A stretch of DNA of 64,000 nt. Origin: Podarcis cretensis (taxonomy: Eukaryota). Positions 36,827 to 50,338 of this stretch are shown here, one piece after another; position 1 is the first letter of the stretch; each line of letters starts with the position of its first letter. Position numbers and translations under genes: made by a program. The notes beneath the pieces were generated by a model. That model made no database searches. It worked only from the letters and a program-made list of their open reading frames with translations, and was not told where the DNA came from. Location of the stretch: positions 48,856,001-48,920,000 of the forward strand of contig OX638153.1 of NCBI GenBank assembly GCA_951804945.1, given 5' to 3'.

Positions 36827-37245
36827 CTCTCCTGCGTGTGAGTGTCTGAGGGCCCTGCTCCTTCCTGCCACTCACCATCTGGCCTGGGGTGGGGCCTGAA
36901 GCCTCATAAGGACTGCTGCGCTCTGCTGCCCAGGAGGACTCTCCTGTATGTGAGTGTCTGAGGGCCCTGCTCCTTCCTGCCACTCACCATCTGGCCTGGG
37001 GTGGGGCCTGAAGCCTCACAGGGACTGCTGCGCTCTGCTGCCCAGGAGGACTCTCCTGCGTGTGAGTGTCTGAGGGCCCTGCTCCTTCCTGCCACTCACC
37101 ATCTGGCCTGGGGCGGGGCCTGAAGCCTCATAAGGACTGCTGCACTCCGCTGCCCAGGAGGACTCTCCTGTGTGAGTGTCTGGGGGCCCTGCTCCTTCCT
37201 GCCACTTACCACCTGGCCCAGGGCAGGGCCTGACGGGCCTCACTA
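36827..37245 (+). repeat. 112-bp tandem repeat, ~3.7 units, at the LINE 5' end
   Basis: Units start with ctctcctg at 36827, 36939, 37051 and 37163. Confidence 0.9.
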
Positions 37246-40151
37246 GGACAGTTGCTGTTACTGCTGGAGGGGTGCAGAGTGCTTTTAAAATGTTTTAAAA
37301 ATTTTATTTTGAATTTTTTGTATGTGGGGGTGGGGTGGATGTTTATTGGGCCTGGGAATTTGTTTGATTTTATGTTTTTGTAATTTTTATTGTTTTTTGT
37401 TTGTATTGTTTTATTTGTGTTGTTGTTGTTGTTGTTGTTGTTTTTTAAAGGTGTTATTTTGTTCTTAAGGGGAGGGGTCAGGGCTGCTGGGGAGTTGGTC
37501 CCAGCCAACAAAATGGCTGGGACATGTTTCACAGGGGGGAATGCACTGGGACAACCGATCTCAGTGATCACAGGTAGGAGGAGGAGTTACGCTAAGACCA
37601 GACCATGTCATTACAGAGGAGGCAGGTTTAGTCGTTGTCTGAGGACTATCCCTGCCTCCGGGTCTGGTCCTGACCGGATGGATACTAGAATCAGCAAGGG
37701 ATACCCACATGACCTGAAAGTGTTGCTGTGCAATGCCAGGTCAATGATTCATAAGACCACTGCCATCCATGACTTGATCATGGATGGAGGACTTGACCTG
37801 GCCTGGATGAAGCAGATGGGCCTGTCCTTGCCGCTGCTTGTCCACCAGGTTTCTCTTACGCACAGCAACCCAGGTCATGTGGGCGGGGAGGGGGGGTTGC
37901 AGTGATTTTTAGGAAGTCATTAGTTTGCACCAGGCGTCCTATTGGGAAGACCCAATTTTCCGAGTGCATGTTCTGGAAGTTGGGCAATAGGGGCAGTACA
38001 GGATTCCTTTTGGTGTACCGACCTCCCCGCTGCACCAAGGATTCCCTGCCCGAGCTGCTTCAGGTTGTGGCGGATGTTCTCCTGGAGACACCTAGCTTGG
38101 TTGTCCTAGGGGATTTTAACATCCATGCCGACATGACCTTACAAGGGGCCGCTCGGGACTTTGTGGAAAGCATGGCCTCCATGGGGCTGTCCCTGAATAA
38201 GTCTGGCCCAACCCATAGCCGCGGACATGCCTTGGACCTGGTGTTTACCTCTATGGATGTTGGTGATCTGACACTAAGTAAAAGTGAAACGAAAGAAGTG
38301 CCATGGTCAGATCACTTCCTGGTGCAACTGGACTTCTCTGCGACCCTTCCCCTCTGCAGGTAGGTGGGACCAATTCAGATGGTCCGCCCCCGCCACTTAA
38401 TGGATCCAAATGGTTTCCAGAGAGTGGTAGGGGATGCTTTATCCCATGTTGATGGCCTTTCAGCCGATTCCCTGGTGGCCCACTGGAATGTGGAGTTAAC
38501 CAGGGCTATTGACTGTTTGGCTCGAAGTGCCCTCTCCGATTGCATGGAGCCCGGAGAGCCCCGTGGTTTTCCACGGATCTGAGGGCAATGAAACAATCGT
38601 TGAGACGGCTAGAGCGCCGGTGGCGGATAACTCATTCCGAATCTGACCGGACACAGGTTAGAGCTCAACGTCAAGCCTACCAAGTGGCGATAGCGACGGC
38701 GAAGAAGACTTTCTTCACTGCCTCTATTGCATCTGCAGAAAACAGCAGCAGGAGACTCTTTCAGGTGGTTCACAATTTAGCGGAACCACCTGTAACATCG
38801 GCGCCCAGTACGGGCCATATGTTCTCCTGCAATGATTTTGCAATTTTTTTTGCAGATAAAATCGCTCAGATTCGGGAAGAAGTAGACTCCACCATGGGAG
38901 CAGGGCCGGGGCGGGAGAGTGCTAGAGTCCTGTCTGGTCAAGTTGTGTGGGATCAATTCCAATCTGTTACCTCCGAGGATGTGCACAGGCTGCTTGGACG
39001 AGTGAAGCCAACCACCTGTCTCCTGGATCCTTGCCCATCCTGGCTTATAAAAGCTAGCCGGGAAGGACTGGGCGATGGGCTTCGTGGGGTGGTGAATGCT
39101 TCCCTTCGTGAGGGAGCCTTCCCAGACCCGCTGAAAGAGGCGGTTATTAAACCGCTTCTTAAAAAACCATCTTTAGATGCGGCCACGATGGCCAATTATC
39201 GCCCAGTCTCAAACCTTCCATTCTTGGGCAAGGTGATTGAGCGAGTGGTTGCTGAACAACTCCAGGCACACCTGGAAGAAGCGGACCATTTGGATCCCTT
39301 CCAGTCGGGATTCAGGCCTCATCATGGGACTGAAACTGCCTTGGTCGCACTGGTTGATGATCTCCGGCGGGCTAGGGACAAAGGTGAGAGCTGTTTCCTA
39401 GTTCTGCTGAATGGGGTAACTGTGCCCCTGAAGGACCAGGTGTGCAGCTTGGGAGTCATTTTGGACTCACAGGTGTCCATGGAGGCACAGGTCAAATCTG
39501 TATCCAGGGCAGCTGTTTACCAGTTCCATCTGGTACGTAGGCTGAGACCCTATCTGCCTGCAGACTGTCTCGCCAGAGTGGTACATGCTCTGGTTATCTC
39601 CCGCTTGGACTACTGCAATGCGCTCTACGTGGGGCTACCTTTGAAGGTGACCCGGAAACTACAACTAATCCAGAATGCGGCAGCTAGACTGGTGACTGGG
39701 AGCGGCCGCCGAGACCATATAACACCGGTCTTGAAAGACCTACATTGGCTCCCAGTACGTTTCCGAGCACAATTCAAAGTGTTGGTGCTGACCTTTAAAG
39801 CCCTAAATGGCCTCGGTCCAGTATATCTGAAGGAGCGTCTCCTCCCCCATCGTTCTGCTCGGACACTGAGGTCCAGCTCCGAGGGCCTTCTGGCGGTTCC
39901 CTCACTGCGAGAGGTCAGGTTACAGGGAACCAGGCAGAGGGCCTTCTCAGTAGTGGCGCCCACCCTGTGGAATGCCCTCCCATCAGATGTCAAAGCGATA
40001 AACAACTACCTGACATTCAGAAGACATCTGAAGGCAGCCCTGTTCAGGGAAGTTTTTAATATGTGACATTTTAGTGTATTTTTCATCCTTGTTGGAAGCC
40101 GCCCAGAGTGGCTGAGGAAACCCAGCCAGATGGGCGGGGTACAAATAATAA

Positions 40152-40193
<42 letters not shown>
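36827..40193 (+). mobile_element. Near full-length L2/CR1-group LINE, defective
   Basis: 5' tandem repeats; ORF from ~37513 with APE motifs (LLCNARS, VYRPP, LGDFN, GHALDLVF, SDH) and RT-flanking motifs (NYRPVSNLPFLGK, QSGFR, HGTETAL, SRLDYCN, LHWLPV). Frameshifts, stop at 38361, RT core deleted near 39409; 3' stem-loop plus (TTA)n tail. Confidence 0.9.
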
Positions 40194-40195
<2 letters not shown>

Positions 40196-40212
40196 AGGTT
40201 AGCAGAAAGCAA

Positions 40213-40619
40213 GCACCTACATTGGCTCCCAGTACGTTTCCGAGCACAATTCAAAGTGTTGGTGTTGACCTTTAAAGCCCTAAATGGCCTTGGCCCACTA
40301 TACCAGAAGGAGTGTCTCCACCCCCATCGTTCTGCCCGGACGCTGAGGTCCAGCGCCGAGGGCCTTCTGGCGGTTCCCTCATTGCGAGAAGCAAAGCTAC
40401 AGGGAACCAGGCAGAGGGCCTTCTCAGTAGTGGCGCCCGCCCTGTGGAACGCCCTCCCATCAGATGTCAAAGAGATAAACCTGACATTCAGAAGACATCT
40501 GAAGGCAGCCCTGTTCAAGGAAGTTTCTAATGTGTGACATCTTAGTGTATTTTTGGTCTTTGTTGGAAGCCACCCAGAGTGGCTGGAGAAACCCAGCCAG
40601 ATGGGCGGGGTACAAATAA

Positions 40620-40655
<36 letters not shown>
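40213..40655 (+). mobile_element. 5'-truncated second copy of the same L2-type LINE
   Basis: Repeats LHWLPVRFRAQFK...FKEV, the 3' stem-loop and the (TTA)n tail. Confidence 0.9.
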
Positions 40656-42309
40656 GGCTAATGGTTTGTTGTGATGCAGAGGTGGGCTCTATCACTGATG
40701 ATGCTGTGGAATGCACTCCCTGTTGATATATGAAAAGCCCTATCTATATTGGCATTCTGCTGTCTTTTGAAGACACACCTGTTTATGCAGGCATTCCCCT
40801 GAGCTCTCAGACTGGGTCGCCTGTTTTAATTACTGTGTTGTTTTAAAAGGGATTGTTTTATTGTATATTCTAAAACTGGGTGCTTACAATTCTCACTGGA
40901 TGACTTTGGGCCAATCACTAACCCTGGTCATAGCCTACCCCAAAGGTTTACTGTGCCAGGAGCATGTGAGCTCCCCTGTGGATTTGGGAGAAAAGATGAG
41001 ATAAAGAAATCATCACTGTCATCATCTTTAAAAGTCTGATGTATCAAGGCAACATTTTGTAGCCTGCCAAGCAACAGCAGATTCGTTCATTTATTTTTAG
41101 AGGCAGGAGACGGAGTTTGTGTGAATTCAGCTCAGTAGTTGGAGGAATAAAGCACCCTATCTCCCGGCCACCTAAAGATTGCCATCTTGTCTAATACACT
41201 ATCAGTAGCTTCACTAGCAGCCAGAGAGGAACAGACCTGTGATGCTTTAATTGTGTCAGTCAACAGGGGAGAATTGCCAGTCTCTCTCCAGAGTTTCAGT
41301 TTGCAGCCAATTTAGAGAACATTTTCACAACAGCTACAGCAGTGATTCTTTTTTCTTACGGTTGTTGACTAACTAATTGATGACAGACACCAGAATCTGA
41401 GAATACCTATTTGGTGAAGTCTTTCGCTAATCTAAACTTTAAATAATATGCAGGAATTGTTTGGTAGTCTCACAATACATTGGATTCACAAAACGGGTAA
41501 GCAGGGAGGGTTTGCACATGCTGGTTGGCTGTTTATGTTCTCTGTGGGACCCCTTCTGCATAAAGAGGTTTCAGTATGTAGAAGGTGGGAAGCAAATACA
41601 GTCCAAATCAGCCTTGATTACATTGGCTGGAGGGGAAAAAATGCTGCTGTGATCACAGAAACGGCCCACAGTCTAATCCGGAATCCAGTTACAGAGTATT
41701 GTATTTAAGTCAATTTATTCTAATTGAACTAAAATCAGCTTAAAGCCAAAATCCTCTAGTTTACTGGTAGGTGGCCCACAGCCAGAGGTTCAGATAATGT
41801 CAGGAAGAGTTAATAAGTATTTTGTGAGGAAGAGAGGGCAGAAACATTACAGACACTGCTTGGAGTCAGAAGGATGGTGACGGTCTGGAACATGATTAGA
41901 AATTAAACAATGTTCTGATATTTTATTTTTCCTGTTGAATTCCTGACTCCTCACTACTAAGTATTTGTGCTAATCTGCTGCATCAAAATGCCACATTTGT
42001 GCCTGCAGTGTTAAGCTAATCCAATATTTAGCACCACTTTGGCAACATTGCTACTGAAACATTCTATAGTGAGTATGGACAGACTACCTCTCAGGCCTTA
42101 TTGTTAATTCTGTAATATGTCCCCATACAGTGGTGATCTGAATGCTATTAGCATGGATTAGCCCAGCAAATGAGTAAATCCCAACTTTCTCATGAAGAGA
42201 ATGCACCAGCTTCCACGAGTTTGAATCGGGCAATCATTTTGTATTAAGTTTTAATTTATATAAAGAATTCAAGAGAGAAAAAGCCCTGAACAGCTATTTT
42301 ACCTGCATT

Positions 42310-42500
42310 ATGTTTTAGTAGTCATTGACTACACCAAATGGGCTGAGGCCTTTGTCCTTCCAGACCAGGAAACCATTGCTGTGTCCTGGTTTTTGTTGAG
42401 AAATGCATTGTATGCATGGCACACCTAGATGCATACAGACCAGAATGCAAGTTTTGAGTCAAAACTTTCGCAAGATTTGTGAGCTGCTAGAAATCCACAC
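42310..42500 (+). mobile_element. Gypsy-type integrase core relic
   Basis: Frameshifted translation YVLVVIDY.TKWAEAFVLPDQE...MHTDQNASFESKL. Confidence 0.7.
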
Positions 42501-42563
42501 AGTGGTTGCACTAGCACGTCCTTTAACAATGTCAGGACCACTTTCTCTCTAAAAGGACTTCTG

Positions 42564-44612
42564 TTTTTTTTTTAATGAATATTTATTAGCATTTTTAAAA
42601 ACAAAACAACAACAAAAATAGACAAAAATACAAAAATCCAAAACTTACAAACAATTAAAAATACCCAAACACATAAAGTTTCAATTACTTATTTTCATTT
42701 AACTTGTTTCTCAGACCTCCTCACACCTCCCCTTCTTGTATTCCAGTTTAAATTATTAGCTCAGCAAGTCCTTATTGCTTATTTCTCAGCTTTAACTTAA
42801 TAATTTATTTTAGCATGTTGTTATTTCACTTTTCCTCCTTTCTTCCATATTCTCAATTTATTTTTGCAAGCCTTATTTTCATTTAATTTAAACCATTTTA
42901 AAAACCAATTTCAGGTTATCCAAACTTAAACATCAATATTTATACATCATCACTCATTCTAAACATTTTTCTAAAGTCGACCAAAATTTCCCTTCCACGG
43001 CTTTCCCCATTTTCATACAAATAGCGAAACAAAAATAAAAACAGAACATATTATAATTATATACCCTTTGGATTCCCAAACTCCACCCTCCCCCTTCCCG
43101 GTTTCAGTCCCCAACAAGTGTCCATCAGTCCCAATATACTGTTTAGCCTGGAGATCTCACATCCGAGGCTCTTAATTCTCTCTCAGTTCCTCTCTGCCGG
43201 TCTTTTTGATAGTCCTTAATGTTGAACCCCAAATCTCGGAGAGGCTCTGGCCCAACAGGATCCATGTTTCTTCCAGCCAGTCCTCCATATTTAAAAGTAA
43301 GGCCTATGGGGTACTCCAAATCTTGTTTCATACTCCTTTCAAGTCCAAATGTCCCCAAAGCTCCAACTTCCTTGACCAAATTTCTAATCCTTCGATCTTC
43401 AGATCTCCACATAAGAAGATCTCTCAATTTTCCACTCTCCAATTCAGGCCAGACTTTCCACATCAGGTTTTTGTTTTGCTTTGTTTCCATCATGTCAGGC
43501 CTCAAGTTACAGTTTTCCTTTAACATCTGCGAAATTACAGCTCCTCCTTCCTTTTGTTCAGGGGCAACATATGTCTCCTTCTCCATAATCTCAAAGCTCT
43601 CAAGTTTCTCTGTTGGTCCAATTGAATAGGCTTCCTGTTTCAAATCCTTATCAGTTTCAACAAGGTTGTTTACTGTTAAGTCCAGAGTTGTAACATTTAT
43701 AGCCAAAACATTGATTTGGCCTTGTAACTTTCCCAAGAGAATGAAGGCTCTGTCCAATTCAACCTGGATTTTCCCTCCTCCAGCCATTCTTGTAGTGTCC
43801 CTAAACCCCCTCTAGAGGGATTTTAGTTCCTTACTATTCCTTTCAGCTCAAATCCAAAAATCAAGTTAGTTTGTATCAGCCCTTCCTTATTTTCAACAAA
43901 TTGTAACAAATATAACCAGCAGAAGCAACAAAAACAAGTTCTCTTTTTCCGTCTTGACAGCTAACTTGACAGCTGTCAAACTCTTCAGAACTTCATCAAC
44001 AGGCTCTCTCGTGGGACGCTCCCAGATCCGGGGGGGGGGGGGGGGTGAAAGTTCAGCTCCCAAATTTTTTTTATCCTCCAGTAAAATTCCTTATAATGTC
44101 AAACCGTGAAATTAAAATCTTTTTACAAAAAGAAAAGAAGAGGTTTTCTCGACCTTAGTTAGCAGGTCCTTTGCTTTAAATTATTTACAAAGGGGGGGGG
44201 GGCGACTTCCTTTTTAAACCTTCCCCGCTCGTTCCTAATTCATCAAAAATTTTCTTTAAAGTTCCAATTTCCGTACTACTCACGGGTTGTTGCTTTTAAG
44301 TCCAATTGTTCAAAGGAAAAAGTCAGCGCTCTACGACAATGGCTTGCGGCTTCACTCCACAGAAGAAGCGGTCTACTCTCAGCACCATGCCGCACCCCGT
44401 CCCCGTTCCGGAGCCTTTAAAAAGGCTCCTTCGCAGATTGGGGGGGGGCACAAATGGTGCCCGCCGAGTCACCAAGCTCACAGGCTTCCGCGCCTGTGAT
44501 TTTTAAGGGTCCCCGCGTCGTCGCCGCGGCTGGACCCGATCCTGCAGAGCCGATTCCCTCCAGAGCTCGGAGGGAATCCGCCATTAGCCGATGACGCTAA
44601 CCTGGAAGTCCT
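42564..44612 (-). mobile_element. Full-length non-autonomous L1-type retroposon (HAL1-like), copy B, ~2.05 kb
   Basis: 16-bp TSD TCTAAAAGGACTTCTG at 42548-42563 and 44651-44666. 5' ~330 nt clearly homologous to copy A; AATAAA plus A tail at the left end. Confidence 0.85.
43143..43787 (-). CDS. 214-aa ORF of retroposon copy B, probably a shortened L1 ORF1p derivative
   Basis: MAGGGKIQVELDRAFILLGKLQGQ aligns with MATDGKLQAEIERMFLLVGILQEQ; YQKDRQRGTERELRASDVRSPG* aligns with YQQNRQRETDRDLKASDVRNPG*. Confidence 0.6.
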   Translation of the reverse strand: MAGGGKIQVELDRAFILLGKLQGQINVLAINVTTLDLTVNNLVETDKDLKQEAYSIGPTEKLESFEIMEKETYVAPEQKEGGAVISQMLKENCNLRPDMMETKQNKNLMWKVWPELESGKLRDLLMWRSEDRRIRNLVKEVGALGTFGLERSMKQDLEYPIGLTFKYGGLAGRNMDPVGPEPLRDLGFNIKDYQKDRQRGTERELRASDVRSPG

Positions 44613-44650
44613 CTGGTTTCTCTTCAGATCGTATAAATCTTTCACCTTTT
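44611..44650 (+). pseudogene. RNU5: U5 snRNA 5' fragment (about nt 4-43), retro-captured antisense to the adjacent retroposon
   Basis: CTCTGGTTTCTCTTCAGATCGTATAAATCTTTCACCTTTT matches the vertebrate U5 5' end (ATACTCTGGTTTCTCTTCAGATCGYATAAATCTTTCGCCTTTTACTAAAG) and stops in loop I. It lies inside the element's TSD. Confidence 0.9.
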
Positions 44651-46099
44651 TCTAAAAGGACTTCTGGACCTATTCATTTTCTCCCTACTAGAGGCTATAA
44701 GTCGTGAAAGGCAAAGATCCAGTGAACATGTGGTTCCATGAACCTGATAAAGCACCTTGCCCACATATGTGGGCCTCATAAACAAAGATAATTCAGTAAT
44801 ATACAACCAGCCAATGCTCTGGGCAGCTTCATGGACTGGCCTACCATAATTGGCTACAAGCAATTTTACCCTCAAAATGCCTCACAGCAAAAACCTCTCC
44901 TAGCAGGCCACCACTGGACCTACTGCATCATGTTTAAAAGGCCATAAGCCACTCTGAAAAAACTCCATAATTCATACAAGTATTCAGCTGGATTCTTCAT
45001 AAGTCTTCCTCCACTTGTGTCCTGCACATGGACAGGCAAAGTTTGTGATGTTTGCTTGTTTAGTTTTCAGTTTGCTCAATTCACTGTAAATGTCAGCCTG
45101 GAAAAATACATAGAGGTAAGGGAGGATGTGGGTGTTGCAGATATTAATATTGCTCAGTTTGAAGCGACTGGAAAAATAAGAACGGACTTCTTTTGAAATA
45201 AATGTACTATCCATAAAAATGTTATCCAAACTTTTACTGGAGCAGCGCCATCTTAAACATATCTGATGCTGTGGTGCAAAGATCCCTCCAGCGCCCCACC
45301 CCCCGTTTCCCAGAGTTGGCGATCTTTTCCCAAGCCTCTGCAGGAATCGCTCTCCTCCCGCGGGGGCTTGGGAAGGTTGCTGAACATCCGCCAGTCATAT
45401 GGTTGACAGGGTGCAGCTTGCAGGAGTGCAGGAGGGAAAGGGGAGGCCGCCGGCAAAACCACGCAGCTCCCCAACTCGCTGGGGCGCCCCTGAGAGGATG
45501 GCACCCTGGTGCAACGCGCCAGTAAACCCAATGGGAAAGATGGCTCTGACTGGCAGAACTCTTTAAAATAAAGCAGAATATATCAAATGTTAGAGCCAAA
45601 ATATCCATACAGTGTCTTGTGCTGCCCAGCACAGGCTCAGCATTTTAGAAAATATGAAATAATCCAGGCAGACGTATAAGCAAAGGTTTCTCTATCTCCA
45701 CAGCCTGCATTCCAGCCTCCAGACTTTACTTTCATTTCAGGAGAGCTTTGTTTACAACCTCACTCCATTAACTTTGGTAGACAAAGACTAAAAGGCAACT
45801 TCCTTTGTGATCTGAGCTGCTTATTATTGTGTCCATGGGCATGGGATCATAAGGTGAACTCTGAACTACAATAAATCAAATTACTGGTTCTTGTTTTTTT
45901 CTATTTTGTAAAGCAAATAATGGCATGGCCATCTAAGTACTTTGGTGAGCAGATGACGAGCATAGAGTTTGGAGGGAATATCCAGCAGGCTAATGGGGGG
46001 GGGGGTAGTTTTGGGGGAGGGTTTTATTTCCTTTTTTGTAGATTGGCACAATGATGTTCAATTTCCAACCAGCTGTCATTTGAGCTGTATTATTTATGT

Positions 46100-46400
46100 A
46101 GGTGTAGAGCTTAGCCAAGATGGGTTGCCACCAGTCCATATGTGTCATAAATTAGCTCTGGTGGCATCATGTCTTCACCTTGCACTTTATTTAGTTTTAA
46201 GCTCTCTATCAGAGATTTTATCCCTGCAGGGGTCACCCCTTGCCACTCTGGAAAATTTGACTGATCATTGATCACCTCGGCATCGGGTGATTGCCCTGTC
46301 TGTTTTCCAAAAAGTTCAGCGTAGTAATCCGTCCAATGTTGTGCTGATACGGTGGCGTCTAGTGTTGATCTTGATTCATTCATGCCCTGAGATACCAAAT
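46100..46400 (-). mobile_element. Degraded LINE ORF2 fragment (region just before the RT)
   Basis: HWTDYYAELF...VT..IKSLIESLKLNKVQGEDMMPPEL resembles the KAPGxD region. Confidence 0.6.
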
Positions 46401-46743
46401 ACGAAACAAGAAGAGGTGGGAGAAAATGGGAGGACTTACTTTGATAATTATAATATCTGTGAGATTTAAGAAAGACATCACGGCCATGGTTTATCACTTG
46501 GTAAAAACAATCAAACATTAAAACACATTTTCCCCTTTGTTCTACAGAGGAGGGGAAGTATTCTGTTCTACAGAATACTTTGTTCTAGAGGGGAGGGGGC
46601 AAAGTATTCTACTGGGATCATTTGATCTGGAAGTCTTTTACGGGGATCATTTTCAGACAAATGAATGATAGCAATGGATAACAGGCAGAAAGAGTAATAG
46701 CGTGAATACAAAAGTCAAACTAATCCACAGTTAAGTTTTGCCT

Positions 46744-46996
46744 CATGCTTTCCAGGCACTGACCTGTGCTTTGCAGCTCTGTGTCCGAGCTCTCTTCCCC
46801 CCTGCCCTAGAGCTTTCCACATGAAAACTCCTCTCTTTAAAGCTGAAGCACAATAAACTGCAATTCAAGTTTTCCACAAGTTACTGTTTCCTCCAGATCA
46901 GCAGCAGAGAGTGGGTTTTTCATGGGGAATGCTCCAGAACAACAAAAAAGTGCTGAGACACTGAACTTTAAGCATGGGTCATGCCCGGAAAGCATG
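46744..46996. repeat. ~250-bp imperfect palindrome (MITE-like) about 1 kb upstream of the second receptor
   Basis: catgctttccaggcactgacctgtgctt pairs with aagcatgggtcatgcccggaaagcatg; inner arms are also complementary. Confidence 0.6.
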
Positions 46997-47617
46997 GAGT
47001 TAAAGGAAGGGTGGACAAGCCCTTAATGCTGAAATACTAAATAAGGAATAAATGAACTACTAGACTCCCTAGCACGATGCAACCGAACATCTTTTGAAAA
47101 CAAAAATATCATCCCACTTTGAGAATTGACAATCCATCAGATTCAAAATATACTTTGCTTATTTTCTTTTGCACTACAGCTGGGCTGAATATATGAAAAC
47201 AACCCAGAGGTTAGAATTCTGGTTTTACAGAACGCCTAGTAATGAGAGAAACTGACACTCACTCATAATTAAATATTCTTCAATATTCATGAGCCGCAGA
47301 CCAGATTTCCCAACTTTCATGTAGCTGAGTCCCTCTAGTGGTAGCAGCATGGATAGCTCTTCAGCCTTTTAGTATTATTTCCACTCATTTAAAGTCAGCA
47401 GGTCTATTTATTTTTTGTAAAATGATAATGCACCAGAGGATGAGTAGAAAAACTTGGACTTCACAAACTATAACTGATTGAATGATGGCACATAAGGAAC
47501 AACGTAATGCTGTGGCTGGCCAATGGGGATATACCCTGCAGAAATGTGTGATGAGTAAGTACTGAAAGCTGCTAAAAGCATTGCTCTCTAGCTTTATGAT
47601 ATATCACACAGCTCACT

Positions 47618-47621
<4 letters not shown>

Positions 47622-47658
<37 letters not shown>
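47622..47658. repeat. (CT)n microsatellite at the putative promoter of the second receptor
   Basis: Directly visible, about 120 nt upstream of the donor at 47779. Confidence 0.95.
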
Positions 47659-47661
<3 letters not shown>

Positions 47662-47778
47662 CACACGCACATGCACACACTTTCTGCTGGCCATGGATTC
47701 GCGGGGGAGATAAATCGGAAGCAGTAGTTGCAAACTGACATGTACGAGAAAATCAAATGACTTCTGGAGACAACAGCT

Positions 47779-47930
47779 GTAAGTACCCTCATTTTTTTAC
47801 CTATTAAACTGCATGCTTGTGAAGTTACTGGGTTAACGTGCAATGAAAGAGAGAACATCAGTAATCGAATTGCACTTGGGAGAAAAAGAAAACACACCCA
47901 GCTGTCAAGGCTTTTTCTTTTCTTTTGCAG
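47779..47930 (+). other. Putative 5'UTR intron of the PRLHR2-like gene
   Basis: Donor GTAAGT at 47779; strong acceptor ctttttcttttcttttgcag ending at 47930; alternative acceptor tttgtgctctag ending at 48022. Confidence 0.55.
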
Positions 47931-48051
47931 ATGAGCATATATTCCCTATGGGGGCAACTCTATTATTCATTCAAGCCGACCCAAAGTGAATGAGTGTGAG
48001 TGCGTGTATGTTTGTGCTCTAGTCAACCCAAAACTGCAAAGGAAAAAGACA

Positions 48052-49083
48052 ATGAATCTGGAGAATCTGACTTCCCAGAGCTTTCTTTCAGCAACCCACA
48101 GCAACACCAGCAATCTCTTCCTGGGGCTCCAGCTGGTTCAGTTCTTCAAGCCGCTTATCATCCCTTGCTACTCCCTTGTGGTTTTTGTGGGCATCATTGG
48201 GAATTACCTCCTCATCTACGTTATCTGCAAGACCAAAAAGATGCACAATGTCACCAACTTCCTGGTAGGCAACCTGGCCTTTTCGGACATGCTCATGTGT
48301 GCCACCTGCGTCCCCCTGACCCTGGCGTATGCCTTTGAGCCTCGAGGCTGGGTCTATGGGCACTTCATGTGCTACTTTGTGTTCCTGATGCAGCCGGTCA
48401 CGGTGTTTGTGTCTGTCTTCACCCTGACTGTCATTGCTGTGGACAGATACTACACCATGGTGTATCCCCTCCGCAGGAGGCTCACGATACCAATCTGCAC
48501 CTATATCCTGGCTGGCATTTGGCTGCTGAGCTGCATGCTGGCTGCCCCAGCCCTGCTGCGCACGTACTATGCCGAGTTTCCAGAGCTGGACTTCTCCATC
48601 TGCGAAGAATTTTGGTTTGACAGGAAGAGAGATCGCTTAGCTTATGCCTACAACACCCTCATTTTCACCTACGTCCTGCCCTTGGCAGTCATCTCTGTCT
48701 CCTACCTGAGGATATCTGTCAAGCTGAAAAACAGAGTTGTCCCTGGCAACGTCACCCAGAACCAAGCGGAGTGCGACCGAGCCCGGAGGAGGAAGACCTT
48801 TCGCCTGCTGGTCCTGGTGGTGGTTGCTTTCGGGGTTTGCTGGCTGCCTTTGCACATCTTTAATGTGATCAAGGACATCGATATCAAGCTGATAGACAAG
48901 AAGTATTTCAATCTCATCCAGCTGCTTTGCCACTGGTTTGCTATGATGTCTGCCTGCACAAATGCATTCCTTTATGCCTGGCTGCACGACAGCTTCAGGG
49001 GGGAGCTGAAGAAAATGTTCGCCTGGCCGAGGAAAAAAATAGGACCAGCCACCAATTGCATTGTGGCAAGCGTGGTGCTGTAA
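48052..49083 (+). CDS. PRLHR2: Prolactin-releasing peptide receptor-like paralogue (PRLHR2 type); 343 aa class A GPCR
   Basis: Same family motifs ([32 protein letters not shown]-terminal SVVL). [18 protein letters not shown] and [13 protein letters not shown] resemble the non-mammalian prlhr2 type; the symbol is tentative. The first in-frame ATG is 48052; the ORF track start at 47986 is a GTG. Confidence 0.9.
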
Positions 49084-49334
49084 ATATGGGCTTTTCCCGG
49101 CTACTGTGGCCTCTTTCATGATAAATGTCGAAAGTTTCTCTTTGTACTGTAATTAACATGTGAGCATGTGCAAGGGGTATTGGATGCTAAGTTTAATGAA
49201 ACCCAAATGATGGCACCTAAAACTTGTAGCCAGAATTAATTATATGAATGAAGGCAAACAGCACACAATTTCTTTCCTATCGCAATATAGCTTGCTTTCA
49301 AGTACTGTTGCTGCTTTGCAAATGGTGGATTCCT

Positions 49335-49540
49335 TATTTATTTCTTTATTGCATATGCATCCCACTTTTCCTCAAGGCAGTGTACGGGGTTCTCATCATT
49401 TAATCCCCACAGCAACCCTGTGAAGTACATTAGGCTGAGAGGCAGTGGCTGGATCAGGGTCACCCAGTGAGCTTTGTGGCTGAGTGGGGATTTGAACCCT
49501 GGTCAAGCAGGTCCTTAGTCTGATACCACACACCACTGGC
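49335..49540 (-). mobile_element. Older tRNA-derived (MIR/core-like) SINE
   Basis: Minus-strand GGTTCAAATCC B box, ctgggtgacc core, A-rich tail. Confidence 0.7.
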
Positions 49541-49668
49541 TAGAATTGGAGTAGGGTAGGAAAGGAATGGAGAAAGAGTTGTGTGAGTTTTATTAAGCAG
49601 TGAGAGGAGGTCAAAGAGAAACACTGCAGTGAGGGAGAAGTGGAGAAGAACATAAGAAGAGCCTGTGT

Positions 49669-49925
49669 GAGAGCCAGTGTGGTGTAGTGGTTAAGAGCGG
49701 TGGGCTCGTAATCTGGTGAACCGGGTTCACGTCTCCGCTCCTCCACATGCAGCTGCTGGGTGACCTTGGGCTAGTCACACTTCTCTGAAGTATTTCAGCC
49801 CCACTCACCTCACAGAGTGTTTGTTGTAGGGGAGGAAGGGAAAGGAGAATGTTAGCTGCTTTGAGACTCCTTTGGGTAGTGATAAAGCGGGATATCAAAT
49901 CCAAAATCCTCTTCTCTTCTTCTTC
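49669..49925 (+). mobile_element. tRNA-derived SINE with (TTC)n tail
   Basis: A box TGGTGTAGTGG; degenerate B box; core gctgggtgaccttgggctagtcac. Confidence 0.8.
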
Positions 49926-49976
49926 CTGCTGGATCAGGCCAATGGCTTATGCAGTCCAGCATCCTGTTCTCACCGC

Positions 49977-50338
49977 CAGGGGCGTAGATAGCTGCTCTGG
50001 CACCTGGAGCAGCAGGGACGGGGCGTTCTGCTCATGGGGTGAGGTGATCCACCAATGGGGGTTGGGCGATCTGTCCACGGGGGTGCCATGGCAATCCGCC
50101 CAGGGGGGGTGCCGCAGAGAGCTGCCCACGGAGTCCGCCTGGTGAATGCAAGCCCCACACTGCCATTTTGAGCAGCGCGGGGCCCTGAGCCACCGTGTCA
50201 CTCCCAGGAGAGACACGTGGCTTGGGCGCACTGCAGGCCAGGCCCCGCAGTAAGTGCCACCCCCCACAGTGTGCGTTCCCCCTGAAGGAAGACACCTGGG
50301 GCAAACCACACACCCCGCACCCCCTTCCTACGCCCCTG
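49977..50338. mobile_element. hAT-type MITE
   Basis: TIR CAGGGGCGTAG...CTACGCCCCTG; 8-bp TSD CTCACCGC/CTCACCAC. Confidence 0.85.

Follow-up and report, generated by a model that had tools for sequence, protein, structure and literature searches.

An antisense U5 snRNA fragment and a retroelement within one TSD in Podarcis cretensis, and the recurrence of such captures in the genome

Inverted chimeras of U5 snRNA and retroelements are known from the human genome, where Doucet et al. 2015 (PMC4476161), in the sections available to us, described four U5 copies, each antisense to an L1 or SVA element inside one TSD, whose truncation points in loop I are nt 36, 43, 46 and 48; twin priming was proposed for them. 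Inverted U1, U2 and U6 cases are also listed in these sections, and the passages on lizards contained in them concern U6 only. According to the accessible parts of Law and Burns 2026 (PMC13174262), human U5 chimeras are all 3'-truncated and 80% of them are antisense, while antisense 5S rRNA and tRNA halves are ascribed to twin priming. The original prediction for the locus studied here mentioned snRNA-L1 chimeras in mammals and described them as mostly sense U6; since only these were considered, the novelty of the structure was overrated. A further paper (PMC13295347) contained no passage on snRNA or inversions in the portion available. A search of the literature, with most subscription journals outside its coverage, did not find inverted U5 chimeras described for any reptile. 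To our knowledge, the priming at the second nick and the closure of the 5' junction in non-LTR integration are still poorly resolved.

The window, by which we mean the whole stretch of 64 kb analysed here, contains an exact 16-nt repeat at positions 42548-42563 and 44651-44666, which is the longest repeat of the segment 44600-44720 within the window. This single TSD encloses both a U5 piece and a retroelement, which are located on opposite strands such that the snRNA is antisense to the element. The retroelement, a putative non-autonomous L1-type element of 2.05 kb that is complete at its 5' end, occupies positions 42564-44611 on the minus strand, with its poly(A) at 42564-42573, next to the first TSD copy (42548-42563, plus strand), and its 5' end at 44611. 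The U5 piece, at 44611-44650 on the plus strand, corresponds to U5 nt 4-43 (window coordinate = 44607 + U5 position) and is identical to the U5 genes of the genome at 39 of 40 positions. The single substitution, a G to A change of the CpG type at U5 nt 37, was identified by comparison with the U5 genes L001, L002, L003 and L005. The 3' truncation falls in the single-stranded loop I, with nt 43 located in the loop that is closed by nt 28-35/47-54 in the folded U5 gene. The prediction of 40 nt of antisense U5 between the element 5' end and the TSD, ending in loop I, thus agrees with the alignment to the U5 genes of the species. The identity of the piece was established by this direct comparison; an Rfam cmscan of positions 40000-50000 reported four chance-level matches and not the U5 piece, probably because the fragment is short. 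An 18-nt part of the piece gave 176 exact matches in the 1.5 Gb genome, as compared to 0 for a reversed control. Elsewhere, the window contains a tandem array of 3.6 copies of a unit of about 112 nt (36827-37233) and, on the plus strand at 37700-40655, a LINE-like element; this element has a (TTA)n tail, downstream of which its 3' 450 nt occur once more.

At the 5' side of the insertion, the first base of the TSD copy (44651-44666, plus strand) differs from U5 nt 44 and the following five bases (44652-44656) match nt 45-49, corresponding to a complementarity of 5/7 at the second nick and in line with the resemblance between the TSD start and the continuing U5 that had been pointed out previously. 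At the junction between the element and U5, the overlap is shorter than originally thought: one or two G precede ACTTC at the 5' end in the majority of the family copies, so that only the C at 44611, rather than CT, is securely common to both. Likewise, the TSD contains the first 7 nt of the element (44658-44664) and not 8 nt, since the eighth base is explained by U5.

We consider it likely that the U5 piece and the element derive from one insertion, in which two different RNAs served as templates of twin priming, a single event that we infer from two observations, the TSD and the recurrence of the structure in the genome. In the first step, L1 ORF2p acting in trans would have nicked the plus strand after position 44666 and copied the element RNA from the poly(A) to the first base. 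A second nick, for which the TSD gives a stagger of 16 nt, would have generated a 3' overhang of 16 nt in the minus strand. Apart from its mismatched terminal base, the end of the overhang is complementary to U5 nt 45-50, adjacent to loop I, and may have primed there and been extended toward the U5 5' end, presumably by the reverse transcriptase of the element. Finally, the two cDNAs would have been joined via a microhomology of about 1 nt, with the loss of U5 nt 1-3. The capture of U5 is likely due to its abundance and its open loop, and not to binding at the donor of the element. The product in the window is a dead by-product and no function is expected of it.

To quantify the recurrence of such structures, 100 of the 176 matches to the 18-nt pattern were listed, of which 4 were full genes. 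The other 96, among them the window and three that are copies of one locus, were analysed together with their upstream DNA, which covered 1.5 kb for 18 loci, 3 kb for 17 loci and 7 kb for 61 loci, and were scored as inverted chimeras if they had a distant TSD of at least 10 nt and an AATAAA within the last 60 nt of the partner. Among the matches listed, 26/96 fragments were inverted chimeras and 18/96 were solo, tailless copies, while 52/96 were unclassified. Each of the 26 inverted chimeras has its own TSD, which begins at U5 nt 39-46 in 24 of them. Twenty of the partners belong to one similarity cluster and 15 encode pieces of ORF2, with a reverse-transcriptase domain (PF00078) present in one of the 26; membership in the L1 clade was judged by similarity and known motifs rather than from a tree. 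Four partners were 5'-complete elements of about 2 kb (the window, L137, L150 and L157), and the element-type 5' end is absent in the remaining 22. The partners in L150 and L157 are 94% identical, but the TSDs and the U5 ends are different, indicating independent captures. The window aside, no fewer than 25 independent U5 cases were present among the 95 examined, in addition to U1 and U2 cases, versus four in the human study, and a set of this size is sufficient to reveal the mode of priming at the second nick and of closure of the 5' junction.

The alternative that a tailless U5 pseudogene and the element were inserted successively at the same spot draws on the abundance of solo copies and on L137, in which the U5 piece is flanked on both sides by a 7-nt direct repeat, as a later insertion would be. 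However, there is no second TSD at the window locus, and a link between the U5 5' end and the partner 5' end inside one TSD, as seen in 26 cases, is not expected of independent insertions into 1.5 Gb. We regard two insertions as highly improbable.

Single insertion by twin priming is also consistent with the sequences at the second nick. In the inverted chimeras, the TSD start agreed with the continuing U5 sequence at an average of 3.5 of 7 positions, versus 2.19 +/- 0.25 for a null that allows leftward extension of the TSD, and the observed match was reached in 0 of 5000 null rounds; the 26 loci in this test were picked by hand and differ at one locus from the rule-based set (L144 for L065). 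The solo tailless copies have a similar match of 3.6 of 7 positions, and 10/18 of them end at nt 39-45. A different source of the U5 piece would be host repair at the second nick, by RNA- or cDNA-templated end joining rather than by the reverse transcriptase of the element. The terminal mismatch of the primer, which among the 26 is present in just the window and L157, is in favour of such repair, as are the 7-12 filler bases between the partner 5' end and U5 in L137, L157 and L162, which copy part of the TSD (permutation p = 0.023) and resemble end-joining products. However, filler bases can also arise through template jumps of reverse transcriptase. Moreover, the end points and microhomologies of the inverted chimeras are like those of the solo tailless copies, which are ascribed to L1 ORF2p in the accessible text of PMC4476161, and it is very unlikely that host repair added U5. 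The filler suggests that contact between the first cDNA and the overhang sometimes preceded the priming on U5.

The U5 piece is not a head shared by the element family. We analysed 40 family copies, located both ends in 35 and identified a TSD of at least 10 nt in 32. None of the 35 copies has U5 upstream of the element, as expected from the original view of a one-off capture. A pattern that combined the element start and the U5 start had 69 matches versus 110 for the control, and in the 53 of 69 that were inspected U5 was present in the window alone; the pattern missed L137, L150 and L157 and therefore excludes only identical heads. An snRNA-headed SINE (SINEU-like) was rejected, as it needs a sense head common to many copies, whereas U5 is antisense here, is found in 0/35 copies, and the U5 ends and TSDs differ among the chimeras. 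A family head, a 5' transduction and an assembly artefact were ruled out by the unique TSD and U5 end point of each chimera.

The family consists of many full-length copies of 2.05 kb with 87-95% identity, and the 3' end is 67-77% similar to the 3' ends of the ORF2-bearing partners. The element has L1-derived ends, a poly(A) and a TSD, and no reverse transcriptase. Its single open frame of 222 codons (P0001; 43143-43811, minus strand) had no Pfam match, including none to L1 ORF1p, and is 28-40% identical to the ORFs of the related 2 kb elements L137, L150 and L157. The frame has at least 150 genomic matches, most of them open, and may be under selection. None of the retrieved loci with a length of at least 5 kb contained an autonomous L1 with the 5' UTR of this element. 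The first nick in the window deviates from the L1 endonuclease consensus TTTT/A, and the TSD starts of the 32 family copies do not follow a strict TTTT/AA rule, the nick being mostly non-canonical, so that the odd nick in the window is ordinary for the family. The non-canonical nick is a property of the L1-type elements of this genome rather than of the window insertion.

We also examined the match between the overhang and the 5' end of the element. The 7-nt match in the window has a chance probability of about 0.003. It recurs in L157 and is absent in L137 and L150 (1/3 independent cases, p ~0.009), and a 6-nt match of the same polarity was found in 0/32 plain family copies. Over all 26 chimeras, there was no significant excess of pairing between the TSD and the partner 5' end (p = 0.16). 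As judged from these sequences, the match is suggestive of a possible pairing between the overhang and the 5' end of the element RNA. It is conceivable, albeit doubtful, that non-LTR integration in this genome regularly takes a route in which the second-strand overhang is primed on a foreign small RNA: such priming exceeds the solo U5 pseudogenes (26 to 18, in human 4 to 49), occurs even after a complete first strand, is seen with more than one type of LINE and may be favoured in full-length elements where the 5' end of the element RNA pairs with the overhang and thereby blocks normal joining.

Captures of other small RNAs bear on how U5 was delivered. With a reach of 1.5 kb, inverted chimeras accounted for 6/23 of the U1 fragments (30 of 61 matches examined) and 4/28 of the U2 fragments (30 of 142 matches examined), and 20/96 of the U5 fragments had partners within the same reach; the capture is therefore not specific to U5. 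The non-spliceosomal control U3 yielded only 3 fragments, of which 0 were inverted and 2 were solo. In the original prediction, U5 was delivered to the same twin priming by a spliceosome assembled on a donor in the 5' UTR of the element RNA. A splice-donor-like hexamer is indeed located in the 5' UTR (44278-44283, minus strand), conserved in 19/21 aligned copies and present at the same place (element position 314-343) in L137, L150 and L157, which are only about 70% identical. In addition, all the captured snRNAs (U1, U2 and U5) belong to the spliceosome, and according to the passages available from PMC4476161 exons are bound by loop I. However, partnerless solo U5 fragments end in the same loop, the element-type 5' end is missing from 22/26 partners, the four U2 partners all differ from the element family by their microsatellite tails, and human 5S rRNA and tRNA are also captured antisense, as described in the accessible parts of PMC13174262. 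Furthermore, 0 of 20 aligned copies were spliced, although these were chosen as full-length matches and represent a biased sample. The solo fragments, the partners without the element-type 5' end and the human 5S rRNA and tRNA cases together imply that the spliceosome step is not needed. We consider delivery by the spliceosome unlikely rather than refuted, since U1, U2 and U5 are all spliceosomal and the U3 control consists of 3 fragments only. Of the original interpretation, twin priming on U5 loop I is supported, and for this the available text of PMC4476161 gives a model of exactly the same structure.

Several loci differed in the type of partner. Four inverted U2 fragments and one inverted U5 fragment (L214, L235, L239, L242 and L065) are joined to partners in which AATAAA precedes a microsatellite tail and which represent a LINE type unlike the poly(A) elements. 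Outside the 26, an inverted U5 fragment in L163 (G000:C9:78788370-78795687) ends near nt 30 and has a SINE-like partner of 376 nt, a hexamer-repeat tail and a 12-nt TSD. This partner resembles what we take to be a Sauria SINE, and if so, non-L1 machinery captures U5 too. The 4.8 kb partner of the inverted U5 in L178 holds an internal inverted ORF2 segment, reflecting either an insertion nested in the partner or an additional inversion. Finally, a 5' fragment of U2 that carries short repeats of the U2 start and a solo U5 fragment are separated by about 1.6 kb (L223 and L055, G000:C1 near 106813200).

The structure in the window is already explained in print, and the only novelty lies in how often such captures occur in this genome and in partners that are 5'-complete. 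With tailless snRNA retropseudogenes, as presented in the accessible sections of PMC4476161 and PMC2912911, it shares the internal priming at a single-stranded loop via short complementarity to the target; however, those copies are primed at the first nick and have no partner, whereas the window case would be primed at the second nick. The element resembles HAL1 (half-L1), described in the available part of PMC5753468, in its size of about 2 kb, its L1-like ends on both the 5' and the 3' side and its single short ORF, as well as in lacking a reverse transcriptase. It differs in that HAL1 encodes ORF1p alone, while the ORF here has no Pfam match to L1 ORF1p, and in that the related elements L150 and L157 retain a 44-codon remnant of the ORF2 C-terminus; we regard it as a non-autonomous, HAL1-like element of the L1 type and as a candidate member of HAL1. 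The catalogue of Law and Burns 2026 (PMC13174262), in the parts consulted, covers mammalian genomes, whereas the chimeras here are from Podarcis cretensis. The closest likeness is to the inverted U5/L1 and U5/SVA copies in the accessible text of Doucet et al. 2015 (PMC4476161), with which the window shares a 3'-truncated antisense U5, one TSD, an end in loop I (here nt 43) and complementarity between U5 and the target. Inverted U5 capture seems to be several times more common in this genome than in human, with 26/96 copies here versus 4/67 characterised U5 copies in that text (Fisher p = 4.5e-4), under selection rules that differ between the two datasets. Unlike in the human cases, the element family here has no TTTT/AA preference, and the published model involves a 5'-truncated L1, whereas the partner in the window is non-autonomous and not truncated, extending to its very first base.
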